A stretch of DNA of 30,614 bases, taken from IMG/VR virus record IMGVR_UViG_2724679239_000009, positions 1 through 30,614 of that record; one strand, given 5' to 3'. A model generated the notes under the pieces. It worked only from the letters and a program-made list of their open reading frames with translations, made no database searches and had not been told where the DNA came from. Below, piece after piece: positions 8,060 to 11,214 of this stretch (position 1 is the stretch's first letter; each line of letters starts with the position of its first letter). Origin of the DNA: a virus. Its lineage: Duplodnaviria > Heunggongvirae > Uroviricota > Caudoviricetes. The translations under genes and the position numbers were made by a program.

Positions 8060-8659
8060 TTATGCATTAAGAAGGGTCAAAAGACGCTCACGCGCCATTC
8101 GTTCGTTAACAGCTTTCTTCAGCGCACCACTCGCCCGCGCTTCCTGCCAGGCTTTCATTGAGCGGACACCAGAGTCTGCGTCCTGATAGGCCGGATATGT
8201 CACCGGGCTGACGTCATACAGACGAGAAATGCGCGTGATTTCCCGGATAACAATCCCCTCGTCGTCTTCATACCAGCTCTCTCCATCACGGGCGACGCGA
8301 AACGCGAACGAGGACTGATTAATGTCACCACGCAACATTGGTGACAGCACCAGGTCACAAATCGTCGGCGTATCCGGTGCAACAATGTCATAACGCAAAC
8401 CACGTTCATCCACTGATAATGACAACGTGCCGGCAGAACTTCGTCCGAGAATGAAATTAGGATCATGATTAAACAAGCCACGTACATCATCATTCAGCAC
8501 GTCGTCAAAAGCCCCCGGCTTGATGATTTCACGAAATCCCCACAGAGGTTCTGAACGACTGTTAAATACCGAGCCATACCCCAAAATATGAGTCGGGGCA
8601 TTATCATATTGTTCTGCCCGCACTTCCCCGCAGTAACAGCGCGTTTCACGGTCATTCAT
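8060..8659 (-). CDS. Prohead maturation protease (HK97 gp4 / S78 family)
   Basis: Start placed at MNDRETR (8659), just after the portal stop. Sits between portal and capsid genes. Confidence 0.85.
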   Translation of the reverse strand: MNDRETRCYCGEVRAEQYDNAPTHILGYGSVFNSRSEPLWGFREIIKPGAFDDVLNDDVRGLFNHDPNFILGRSSAGTLSLSVDERGLRYDIVAPDTPTICDLVLSPMLRGDINQSSFAFRVARDGESWYEDDEGIVIREITRISRLYDVSPVTYPAYQDADSGVRSMKAWQEARASGALKKAVNERMARERLLTLLNA

Positions 8660-9749
8660 CGTTCTTTTCCTCTTTGCCTTTCGTATCTTTAAAATCATTC
8701 AACGGATTTGCTGCATTTACGCTGACCAGCATTTCATCCAGACCATCAACCGGGTTCATGTCCTCAAATGCCCTGGCTTCATTCCGGCTCATCCAGCCAT
8801 CTGTAATGGCAAAGTGATAAAACTGCGCACGCTCCTGTGGAGTCCCGCGGAGCAATCCTGTAAGGTTGAAACGAACGTAATACCCGGCAGCCCGTTCTGT
8901 GCGGGTAAACAGGCGACGGTTAAGCTCCTGCTCCCAGTTCGCAACCCAGGGCATCATCGTGTAGCGAACAAACTGAATCGCCTGCTGTGTAATATTCGAA
9001 AATGTGGCTTTTTCCAGGTCATTAATCATGTGCGCCGGGACATTAAAAATTCCGGCAATCATCGACCGGTTCAGCTTGGTCATATCAATGATCTGAGCAT
9101 CCACCGGAGAAACTGTCAGGGCACGGTAATCCAGTTGCGCAGGCAGCAGCATGGTTTTATTTTCCTGACTGCGAAGCGCTGTCACCGCCCGCTGCCACAT
9201 ATTCTTGAGCCTGCTCCAACTCTGTTCGTTCAGTTCATTTTTCACAGAGATAATCCCGGCAGGACGGGCATTACCGTTAAAAAAAGCACTGGTATACTGC
9301 TGACCACTCATTCCCATACCAATGGTTTCAGCATGCTGCATGATCGGACTCAGTCCCATTTTCTGATTGTTTCCCAGCGCCCTGATATGGATCATATCGT
9401 CCGGACTTACCGCAAATGCCCCCTCTTCGTTATACACCCCGTAGGTATGACGCCCACCAGTATTAAGTAACGTGGTTTCCCATGGCATACAGCATTCAAG
9501 ACTGGTAACCTCGCCACGACGATTACGTTTTACCCACGTATAACCATTGCCCCACCCCAGCACATGACGCTGCTTCAGTTCCCGCCACTTATAGCTGGTC
9601 TGCCAGGCATTAGGTTCATCATGAACGAGCCAGAACAACGGATGATCGCGTGCCGGCTGAACATGCTCATTCGTTTTTCGCATCACATGCAGGGGCATCT
9701 GAGCCACACTGGATGAAATAACATAAATACAGGCATAGACAGCAGCCAG
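8652..9749 (-). pseudogene. Portal protein, C-terminal 365 codons, cut off from its start by IS2
   Basis: The portal reading frame runs straight out of the IS2 terminal repeat. The listed ORF start at 9776 lies inside IS2 and is an artefact. Confidence 0.85.
9745..9749. repeat. IS2 target-site duplication GCCAG (left copy)
   Basis: The 5 bp immediately flanking both IS2 ends are identical (GCCAG at 9745-9749 and 11081-11085). Confidence 0.85.
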
Positions 9750-9760
9750 TGGATTTGCCC

Positions 9761-10666
9761 CTATATTTCCAGACACCTGTTATCACTTAACCCATTACTG
9801 GCCTGCTGCCGTAGATATTCCCGTGGCGAGCGATAACCCAGTGCACTATGCGGATGCCATTCGTTATAATGCTCGAACGCCTCTGCAAGGTTCTTTGCTG
9901 CCGTTAAACCGTCTGGTTTAGGCATGACACTGATGTAGTCACGCTTTATCGTTTTCACGAAGCTCTCTGCTATGCCGTTACTCTCCGGACTCCGCACCGC
10001 CGTGTTCTTCGGTTCAAGCCCCAACATCCGGGCAAACTGGAGTGTTTCATTAGCCCGGTAGCATGAACCATTATCCGTCAGCCACTCTACTGGAGACGCC
10101 GGAAGCTCGTTGCCGAAGCGGCGTTCCACCGCTCCCAGCATTACGTCCTGTACTGTTTCACTGTCGAAGCCGCCCGTAGTGACTGCCCAGTGCAGTGCCT
10201 CACGGTCACAGCAGTCCAGCGCGAACGTGACTCGCAGTTTTTCTCCGTTATCACAGCGGAACTCGAACCCGTCAGAGCACCATCGTTGATTGCTTTCTTT
10301 CACGGCCACTTTGCCTGTATGTGCCCGTTTCGATGGCGGTACAGCGGTTTTTCGCTCAAGCAACAGCGCATTCTGGCGCATGATCCGGTAAACCCGTTTG
10401 GCATTGATCGCAGGCATACCATCAAGTTCGGCCTGTCTGCGAAGCAGCGCCCATACCCGACGATAACCATACGTGGGCAGCTCTCCGATAACATGGTGTA
10501 TACGGAGAAGCACATCCGTATCATCTGAGTGACGGCTGCGGCGACCATCTTTCCAGTCATCGGTTCGTCTGAGAATTACGTGCAACTGCGCACGCGACAC
10601 CCGGAGACAACGGCTGACTAAGCTTACTCCCCATCCCCGGGCAATAAGGGCGCGTGCGCTATCCAC
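9761..10666 (-). CDS. insD: IS2 InsD (OrfB, DDE transposase catalytic domain)
   Basis: 301-aa ORF with IS3-family integrase-core motifs. Overlaps insC across the frameshift window. Confidence 0.9.
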
Positions 10667-10989
10667 TTTTTTGCACGCCCATATTCAACGGCTTCTTTAA
10701 GGAGTTCATTTTCCATCGTTTTTTTTCCGAGCAGGCGCTGGAGTTCTTTAATCTGCTTCATGGCAGCAGCAAGTTCAGAGGCAGGAACGACCTGCTCTCC
10801 TGCGGCCACAGCAGTAAGACTTCCCTCCTGGTATTGCTTGCGCCAGAGAAATAACTGGCTGGCTGCCACACCGTGTTGCCGGGCAACAAGGGAGACCGTC
10901 ATTCCCGGTTCAAAACTCTGCTGAACAATAGCGATCTTTTCCTGTGTAGTACGCCGTCTGCGTTTCTCCGGTCCTAAGACATCAATCAT
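10624..10989 (-). CDS. insC: IS2 InsC (OrfA, HTH)
   Basis: Translation [56 protein letters not shown] matches IS2 InsC as I recall it. Confidence 0.9.
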
Positions 10990-11080
10990 CTGCTCTCCAA
11001 TGACTAGTCTAAAAACTAGTATTAAGACTATCACTTAAATAAGTGATACTGGTTGTCTGGAGATTCAGGGGGCCAGTCTA

Positions 11081-11085
11081 GCCAG
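11081..11085. repeat. IS2 target-site duplication GCCAG (right copy)
   Basis: See left copy. Confidence 0.85.
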
Positions 11086-11214
11086 CTTCATGGATGTTTC
11101 CGGACTGACATACACATCCCGGGCAAAAATATTATCCGTCTCAGCGGCCTCTCCGGTTACCGGAACCGAGGGATTTTCCAGAGGCTCACTGCGAAACAGA
11201 GCATCAAGAAGCAT
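11081..11214 (-). pseudogene. Portal protein, N-terminal 44 codons upstream of the IS2 insertion
   Basis: ATG at 11214 is preceded by GAGGAG. Hand translation gives MLLDALFRSEPLENPSVPVTGEAAETDNIFARDVYVSPETSMKLA, in frame with the C-terminal fragment once IS2 and one target-duplication copy are removed (408 codons total). Confidence 0.8.

Follow-up and report, generated by a model that had tools for sequence, protein, structure and literature searches.

The window analysed here, 30,614 nucleotides in length, makes up the opening 30.6 kb of one contig in the draft genome of Escherichia albertii K7394, a strain whose identity and sequencing method have been described; the assembly was made with Platanus from short MiSeq fragments of 250-300 bp (PMC4700944). 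K7394 is a clinical isolate and belongs to the G3 lineage of E. albertii. The window contains a lambdoid prophage whose head is of the HK97 type, integrated beside yccA, and the chromosomal flank, at about 90% identity, confirms a source other than E. coli. No tRNA was found between the integrase and yccA in a tRNA scan of the attachment side. The window ends within the tail module at the end of the contig, and the prophage is seen up to that point. Between TerL and the S78 prohead protease, the gene for an HK97-family portal is interrupted by an IS2-type element flanked by a short direct duplication, and a damaged integrase gene lies elsewhere in the prophage (Table 1).

Table 1. Features of the interrupted portal locus and of the integrase gene in the K7394 window.
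Feature	Position	Strand	Basis or remark
S78 prohead protease	8060-8659		downstream neighbour of portal
Interrupted HK97-family portal gene	8652-11214	-	split after nt 134
Portal 3' fragment, codon 44 onward including duplication copy to stop	8652..9749	-	Pfam Phage_portal
Target-site duplication copy GCCAG, gene-downstream side	9745..9749	.	script check of sequence
IS2 isoform, 1331 bp	9750..11080	-	gap-free alignment to K-12 IS2A, 95.27% nt identity
IRR, 41 bp, abutting portal 3' fragment	9750..9790	-	comparison with K-12 IS2A
orfB, InsD, 301 aa, DDE integrase core rve/rve_3 and HTH_21	9761..10666	-	Pfam PF00665, E 3.6e-19
orfA, InsC/InsA-type, 121 aa, HTH_Tnp_1	10624..10989	-	Pfam PF01527, E 2.4e-19
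A6G (AAAAAAG) programmed -1 frameshift window in orfA/orfB overlap	10666..10672	-	IS position 409, as in K-12
IRL, 42 bp	11039..11080	-	first 31 nt as in K-12 IS2A
Target-site duplication copy GCCAG (CTGGC in gene orientation), gene-upstream side	11081..11085	.	script check of sequence
Portal 5' fragment, codons 1-43	11086..11214	-	start coincides with annotated portal start in EPSSH018 and Evi
TerL	11362-13119		upstream neighbour of portal
Integrase pseudogene	29832..30614	+	1015/1015 nt identical to EPSSH018 integrase save a 5-bp gap

The portal gene opens with an ATG at 11212-11214 on the minus strand, and its stop codon (8652-8654) overlaps the start of the prohead-protease gene (ATGAATGA). 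The upstream CTGGC copy supplies all of codon 44 and bases 1 and 2 of codon 45, in agreement with the first-pass annotation, which had placed the insertion 44 codons into the gene. Read from the portal start, the 5' fragment and its duplication copy run into the element and stop after 49 amino acids (stop at 11065-11067); the predicted peptide consists of 44 portal residues, an Ala45 for which the first base of IS2 supplies the third codon position, and four residues encoded by the element. At the 5' end of the 3' fragment, neither a start codon nor a recognisable ribosome-binding site was seen when the sequence was read by eye. Deletion of the element together with one duplication copy leaves 1227 nt, a length divisible by 3, so the two fragments do stay in frame, as had been claimed, in a single open reading frame of 408 codons. 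The rebuilt protein is full length by comparison with homologues, a check that the annotation had proposed, being equal in length to the annotated portals of phage Evi and of the prophage in E. coli EPSSH018. It matches PF04860 over profile positions 2-321 of 321 (E 1.9e-100), with the Phage_portal domain covering residues 46-373. It also aligns with the HK97 portal structure (HK97 gp3; 8cez/8fql) over residues 31-395 (E 1.3e-39), and homology to HK97 thus already spans residues 31-44, upstream of the break. The full profile match, the length and the place between terL and the protease gene all identify an HK97-family portal.

The interrupting element is colinear with IS2A of E. coli K-12 (NC_000913.3 381260-382590; IS3 family, IS2 group), with which it shares a length of 1331 bp, imperfect terminal repeats, the orfA/orfB overlap with its A6G window, and an identical OrfA (no amino acid differences from K-12 InsC despite 20 nucleotide differences). 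Its IRL end at 11080 and IRR end at 9750 make it co-directional with the portal gene and the late operon. It differs from IS2A at 63 nucleotides, and in OrfB 13 of 301 residues are changed relative to K-12 InsD. By the ISfinder convention, isoforms share about ≥95% nucleotide and/or ≥98% amino acid identity, and the values obtained (95.27% for the nucleotide sequence, 100% for OrfA and 95.7% for OrfB) are borderline for it. The earlier assignment to IS2 stands as to type, but the element is not identical to K-12 IS2A and is better described as an isoform or variant, for which a separate ISfinder name may be possible. Its host is E. albertii, not E. coli, but the variant also circulates in E. 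coli, in copies that are 98.6-99.6% identical and annotated as IS3-family transposase.

Alignment of the ends, suggested earlier as a check on the terminal repeats, found the first 31 and last 26 nucleotides of the element to be exactly those of K-12 IS2A. The two ends can also be aligned with one another when small gaps are allowed; a poor match in an ungapped comparison was due to small indels, and was resolved by gapped alignment and by the comparison with K-12 IS2A. In IS2, the imperfect terminal inverted repeats measure 41/42 bp, a -1 frameshift at the A6G motif joins orfA to orfB, and the target duplication is 5 bp, as in the K7394 portal (PMC3299598). Length and terminal repeats, overlapping orfA and orfB with A6G, and a 5-bp target duplication are all found here, and the element is complete, with orfA, orfB and the A6G window intact, as the annotation had stated. 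The GCCAG duplication it had described was read directly in both copies and is perfect. In a short-read assembly, the interior of any copy of a multi-copy IS may represent a consensus across the whole set, so that the junctions of the portal-gene copy are more certain than the intactness of its transposase.

Comparison with related prophages, also recommended at the outset, located the empty site. The prophage of E. coli EPSSH018 (NZ_CP125889.1) aligns to the window at 99.93% identity in two gap-free blocks, 1-9749 and 11080-15633, whose overlap is exactly the 5-bp duplication. Phage Evi (LR597642.1), isolated as a coliphage (PMC10910852), and the EPSSH018 prophage both have a single CTGGC at the insertion position and, unlike K7394, an intact portal gene. 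The rebuilt portal (nt 1-1227) matches in one piece at 99.9% in EPSSH018 and 99.8% in Evi, with only 1-2 nucleotide differences, all synonymous, so that the protein is identical to both at 408 of 408 residues. The gene order terS-terL-small ORF-portal-protease-capsid is common to all three, and EPSSH018 shares the yccA-side integration locus; over the structural module, near-identical relatives differ at 10 nucleotides in 14.3 kb. In contrast, the mosaic early and immunity regions of these relatives are unlike those in the K7394 window. The phage has recently been exchanged between E. coli and E. albertii. The insertion is genuine, with boundaries and duplication as described, and nothing in the sequence contradicts it. 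Altogether, a recent, genuine IS2 insertion that disrupts the portal gene of the K7394 prophage is the best overall explanation, with a probability of about 0.9.

The earlier suggestion of a recent insertion is borne out by flanks that match an uninterrupted prophage at 99.93% identity, by the finding of the insertion in one assembly only, and by a genome with at least nine identical copies of IS2. This portal type is uninterrupted in 882 E. coli genomes. When the 2563-bp interrupted gene was used as a query against 5,426 complete E. coli genomes, matches were obtained in 4903, but the top-ranked ones were IS copies, no place covered ≥80% of the query, and the K7394 portal insertion was found in none of the genomes. 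The exact IS-portal junction had no match among GTDB species representatives, of which K7394 is not one, and the 49-residue fusion peptide is encoded by one assembly only. Besides the portal copy, the K7394 genome holds at least eight further IS2 copies, each identical to it at 1331 of 1331 positions, although in a short-read assembly this 100% identity could partly reflect consensus fill. Six of the eight sister copies have perfect 5-bp duplications of their own, so that, with the portal copy, the signature is borne by seven of the nine copies observed, at different target sequences. Identical copies (at least nine) at separate sites, with their own duplications, indirectly suggest that IS2 has been transpositionally active in this strain. 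Because of the other identical copies, the portal insertion is regarded as one event of a recent, strain-wide expansion of IS2 in K7394. The event itself would have been a copy-out/paste-in transposition of the IS2 isoform into the portal gene of the lambdoid prophage.

The portal dodecamer is the vertex at which the prohead nucleates, the channel for DNA, and the docking site for terminase and tail. With its reading frame split after nt 134, the gene would yield no full-length portal; in an induced prophage DNA packaging would be expected to fail, and no infectious particles would form. Translational coupling to the overlapping start of the prohead-protease gene is probably lost too. Because portals are essential, we infer, on sound grounds, that virion assembly would be lost, and production of infectious particles by the K7394 prophage has almost certainly stopped. 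Polarity on the downstream genes is, like the order of the two lesions in this prophage, a point that we infer; for the capsid and tail genes it is uncertain because Q-antiterminated late transcription might read through the element. Counts of promoter and terminator consensus sequences in 8600-11400 equal those expected from shuffled sequence, and the same consensus scan revealed no outward-facing promoter-like site on the minus strand at the right end of the IS. A hybrid IS2 promoter driving the downstream head genes was accordingly dropped from consideration.

IS2 is not the only disabling lesion, and the first-pass annotation had overlooked the other. In the integrase gene, one CAAAA of the CAAAACAAAA repeat is missing (at about 30483-30487), and this 5-bp deletion shifts the frame at codon 220, leaving 260 amino acids instead of 339. 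The deletion is a slippage event independent of the IS2 insertion, and the frameshift would also lock the prophage in the chromosome. With a portal gene split by an IS and a frameshifted integrase, the K7394 prophage is a defective (cryptic) prophage. The truncated integrase raises the possibility that IS2 entered a prophage already dead, perhaps with further lesions past the contig end, and that the insertion was a neutral secondary event. IS2 also lies in other prophage or integrative-element genes of the genome (loci L010, L011 and L015), as would be expected if DNA of this kind tolerated insertions. However, both lesions lie in DNA nearly identical to that of functional relatives (1015 of 1015 nt around the integrase deletion; 10 nt in 14.3 kb of the structural module), so both are recent and their relative order cannot be read from it. 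Moreover, an integrase defect blocks excision, not head assembly, and the portal lesion is disabling on its own. Prior death of the prophage is thus conceivable but unlikely.

The annotation had further proposed that, with assembly abolished, the cargo genes are probably maintained for the benefit of the host. This does not follow: after so recent an insertion, intact genes nearby are what would be expected by default, and they carry no information on selection. Cargo of plausible use to a host is present, including a RosmerTA defence pair (RmrA, E 6e-105; RmrT, E 4.6e-25), a weak SIR2-like match and hok/gef, and four of the nine observed IS2 copies lie in prophage or integrative-element genes (the portal, a holin, a lysis-cassette site and an integrase). 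These data could be taken to mean that loss of the portal was itself selected, or that the prophage is retained for this cargo and for effectors further downstream. The insertion, however, has been found in no other strain, either among the E. coli genomes or in the look-up of the fusion peptide, and gives no sign of spread or fixation. Purifying selection against insertions in useful chromosomal genes accounts equally well for an excess of IS copies in prophages. Adaptive domestication is for these reasons considered improbable. It is very improbable that the IS2 burst was non-random and preferentially disarmed prophages and integrative elements, an IS-driven domestication that would lock in the RosmerTA defence and effector genes with the risk of lysis removed.

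Continued particle production despite the insertion is harder to sustain. The Pfam portal domain lies almost wholly in the 3' fragment, which might in theory be translated from an internal start (a GTG at 9776 within IRR, or Met61); the perfect duplication would permit exact restoration of the gene by precise excision of IS2 in a subpopulation; and other lambdoid prophages reside in the K7394 genome (L011 and L015), one of which could in principle supply a compatible portal in trans or repair the gene by recombination. Yet an internally initiated product would lack conserved residues, since homology to the HK97 portal begins at residue 31, no Shine-Dalgarno-like motif was seen by eye before the candidate internal starts, and the right end of the IS offers no outward-facing promoter-like site. 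Precise IS excision is rare, and the integrase is broken too, so that an escape of this kind is highly improbable. Misplacement of the IS2 repeat in the portal gene while the draft was scaffolded or its gaps were closed is scarcely credible and was rejected: the draft was built with Platanus from 250-300 bp MiSeq fragments, none of which can singly span the interior of a multi-copy IS, but both junctions are present, flanked by two perfect copies of a 5-bp sequence that occurs only once in the empty site. Such a duplication is the biochemical mark of IS2 transposition, would not be created by mis-joining, and recurs at different targets in seven of the nine copies observed.

The K7394 prophage offers a clean, exactly reconstructable case of a functional temperate phage turned very rapidly into a defective prophage by two independent small lesions, the IS2 insertion and a 5-bp slippage deletion. 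In the K7394 annotation, the portal and integrase genes call for a pseudogene label, and the IS2 copies should be listed. The locus and its empty counterpart also form a natural "before/after" pair for studies of how IS elements expand in E. albertii. In broader terms the significance is small, and no new mechanistic question is opened.

IS insertion is an ordinary route of prophage decay and is already well known from prophage genes of E. coli and Shigella. Insertions of IS629 have reportedly been found in the prophages of O157:H7, and IS2 is said to act as a spontaneous mutagen of phage P1. As in K7394, IS2 in the P1 case enters the DNA of a lysogenic phage and inactivates phage functions; P1, however, is a laboratory-studied plasmid prophage, whereas in K7394, a clinical isolate, IS2 struck a lambdoid prophage in the chromosome. 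IS2 is also present in the KpLE2 phage-like element of K-12 (PMC4700944 supplement). In the KpLE2 and IS629 cases, as in K7394, an IS3-family element disrupts prophage genes and the defective prophage keeps its other genes. The K7394 insertion differs from the KpLE2 and IS629 cases in its host species and target gene, and in having a near-identical empty site that allows the event to be reconstructed exactly.

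The IS2 insertion in the portal gene reported by the first-pass annotation is genuine, correctly described and readily reconstructed, yet ordinary. After the segment 8400-11500 had been read, its ORFs listed and the boundaries checked by script, the 1331-bp element, its flanking GCCAG duplication (CTGGC in gene orientation), its position 44 codons into the gene and the in-frame rebuild were all borne out, removal of the element and one CTGGC giving 1227 nt, or 408 codons, in one frame. With the element in place, the 5' piece of the portal gene runs into it and stops after 49 aa, and the 3' piece does not begin with a start codon. 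In-frame start candidates for this 3' piece in the ORF listing are limited to a GTG within the right end of the IS and portal Met61, and no convincing ribosome-binding site was seen by eye at either.

Features of the interrupted portal gene and accessory genes in the window, and IS2 copies at loci on other contigs of GCA_001515005.1
Feature	Position or locus	Strand	Remarks
Portal start (ATG)	11212-11214	minus	followed by 43 portal codons
CTGGC, upstream-side copy		minus	codon 44 and two bases of codon 45; then the element and the second CTGGC
Inserted element	9750-11080		exactly 1331 bp
GCCAG copies	9745-9749 and 11081-11085		
orfA	10624-10989	minus	121 aa; Pfam HTH_Tnp_1
orfB	9761-10666	minus	301 aa; Pfam HTH_21, rve, rve_3
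Portal stop	8652-8654	minus	end of the remaining portal ORF after the second CTGGC
53-aa hydrophobic ORF	11204-11365	minus	overlap with portal start, 11204-11214
RmrA (RosmerTA)	18915-20021	minus	368 aa, E 6e-105
RmrT (RosmerTA)	19999-20649	minus	216 aa, E 4.6e-25
hok/gef toxin gene	about 20815-20970	minus	adjoins SIR2-like gene
SIR2-like protein, weak	21342-22373	minus	343 aa; PADLOC Aga_SIR2, E 3.8e-6; Pfam SIR2_2 faint
Integrase	29832-30614	plus	260 aa
IS2 copy	L010		splits integrase
IS2 copy	L011		between lysozyme and Rz genes
IS2 copy	L015		truncates holin

The element is assigned to IS2, probably as an isoform, because it aligns with IS2A of E. coli K-12 (NC_000913.3 381260-382590) without gaps over its full length (63 differences, 95.27%) and because E. 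coli chromosomes and plasmids hold copies 98.6-99.6% identical to it. Its first 31 nt and last 26 nt are those of IS2A, which settles the match of the terminal repeats in favour of the annotation, and the AAAAAAG frameshift window lies at the same position in both. Between the two elements, OrfA differs at 20 nucleotides, all synonymous, with no amino acid change, whereas 13 of the 301 residues of OrfB are altered; the OrfA regulator is under strikingly strong constraint. The layout also agrees with IS2 as published (PMC3299598), which has imperfect 41/42-bp ends, overlapping orfA and orfB, an A6G window and transposition through a minicircle.

Once rebuilt, the protein is a match to Pfam Phage_portal (E 1.9e-100, residues 46-373) and to the solved HK97 portal 8cez/8fql (E 1.3e-39, residues 31-395). 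Upstream of its gene lie those for both terminase subunits, small and large, and downstream those for an S78 prohead protease and an HK97-type capsid. A conserved hydrophobic ORF situated between terL and portal ends within the start of the portal gene. Insertion-free relatives are available for comparison: a total of 882 E. coli genomes have the portal gene without interruption, and rebuilt nucleotides 1-1227 align in one piece with the prophage of E. coli strain EPSSH018 (99.9%) and with coliphage Evi (99.8%). CTGGC is single at this site in both, and the rebuilt protein is full length and identical to each at 408/408 residues. Across 1-9749 and 11080-15633 the window aligns with the EPSSH018 prophage at 99.93% without gaps, the two blocks overlapping by precisely the 5 duplicated bp. 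Evi was isolated as a coliphage, from infant faeces (PMC10910852), and the uninterrupted version therefore belongs to an infectious phage.

No complete E. coli genome contained the interrupted gene, and scanning species representatives for the junction gave no match. In a peptide look-up, the 49-aa fusion peptide was encoded in one assembly, GCA_001515005.1 (contig BBWA01000012.1, of which the window is positions 1-30614), so that the insertion is found in one isolate only. The supplement to Ooka et al. 2015 (PMC4700944) lists the accession range under Escherichia albertii K7394, a lineage G3 strain from a symptomatic human (Japan, 2008) with a MiSeq/Platanus draft. Chromosomal genes past the integrase (yccA, tusE, yccX, rlmI onward) reach only ~90% identity with any E. 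coli genome. The module for head, tail, terminase and lysis (14.3 kb) has only 10 differences from the EPSSH018 prophage, and both prophages adjoin yccA. Taken together, these observations (window 1-9749 and 11080-15633; locus L006, 13400-19000) indicate that the phage passed between E. coli and E. albertii very recently. All remaining genes of the window for morphogenesis, lysis and terminase equal their EPSSH018 counterparts in length.

In tailed phages, the portal dodecamer forms the vertex at which terminase packages DNA and the tail joins. Here the portal ORF is physically split inside the HK97-portal-homologous region and a full-length product cannot be encoded; proheads would lack the packaging and tail vertex, and no infectious particles would be expected. 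Translational coupling to the protease is likely lost as well, because the end of the portal gene and the beginning of the protease gene overlap (ATGAATGA, 8652-8659, minus), and the arrangement suggests that translation of the 53-aa ORF, portal and protease was coupled in a chain now broken by the IS. The IS may or may not be transcriptionally polar, since Q-antiterminated late transcription may pass through it; a consensus scan found no outward promoter-like site at its right end, with counts at chance level. A second lesion affects the integrase, 1015/1015 nt identical to that of EPSSH018 except that, near 30483-30487, a CAAAACAAAA repeat lacks one CAAAA. The resulting frameshift at codon 220 shortens the product from 339 to 260 aa and leaves the gene a pseudogene. 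The C-terminal part, which holds the catalytic residues in tyrosine recombinases, is gone, and the prophage can thus probably neither excise nor build heads.

The proposal that cargo genes are kept for host benefit is unsupported, though not refuted, given a very recent insertion in a single isolate. An anti-phage defence pair, RosmerTA, lies in the early region, which is mosaic here, and is absent from the matching region of EPSSH018 and Evi; the SIR2-like gene and hok/gef are possible further accessory genes. Because the whole structural module is near-identical to functional relatives, the prophage must have been acquired, and then hit, very recently, in line with the annotation's suggestion of a fairly recent insertion, and intact cargo genes are the expectation under zero selection. 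The contig end falls within the tail module, in the minor tail gene that follows the tape-measure gene (1-614); tail-tip and fibre genes and downstream effector cargo as in EPSSH018 (nleH, nleG) fall outside the window.

At least eight further loci in the assembly (L009-L012 and L014-L017) encode the exact OrfB. All eight other IS2 copies are identical to the window copy at 1331/1331 positions, but fragments of 250-300 bp do not allow the interior of a multi-copy IS to be phased, and this perfect identity and the intactness of the portal copy may therefore partly reflect assembly consensus. Junctions and duplications are locus-specific and untouched by this problem: the duplication is a perfect 5 bp at six copies, 4 bp (TATG) at L016 and missing at L015 (CTGAC vs TATCC), where IS-mediated deletion or inter-copy recombination may have shaped the holin site. 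One CSS-EAL gene and one AIDA-like gene are likewise split by other copies. With eight identical copies in the same assembly, several in mobile-element genes, the portal insertion is best read as one event of a recent IS2 expansion in K7394. That this burst preferentially or selectively disarms prophages, as four of the nine copies seen in such genes might hint, is very improbable because the insertion tolerance of prophage DNA accounts for the same pattern.

In E. coli, Shigella and related bacteria, prophage genes are commonly disrupted by IS3-family elements. Prophages of O157 are riddled with IS629 insertions, and IS2 was recognised long ago as a cause of spontaneous mutation in prophage P1. 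The phage-like element KpLE2 of K-12 also contains IS2 (PMC4700944 supplement). The insertion in the K7394 portal gene falls fully within the known behaviour of IS2 and of decaying prophages.
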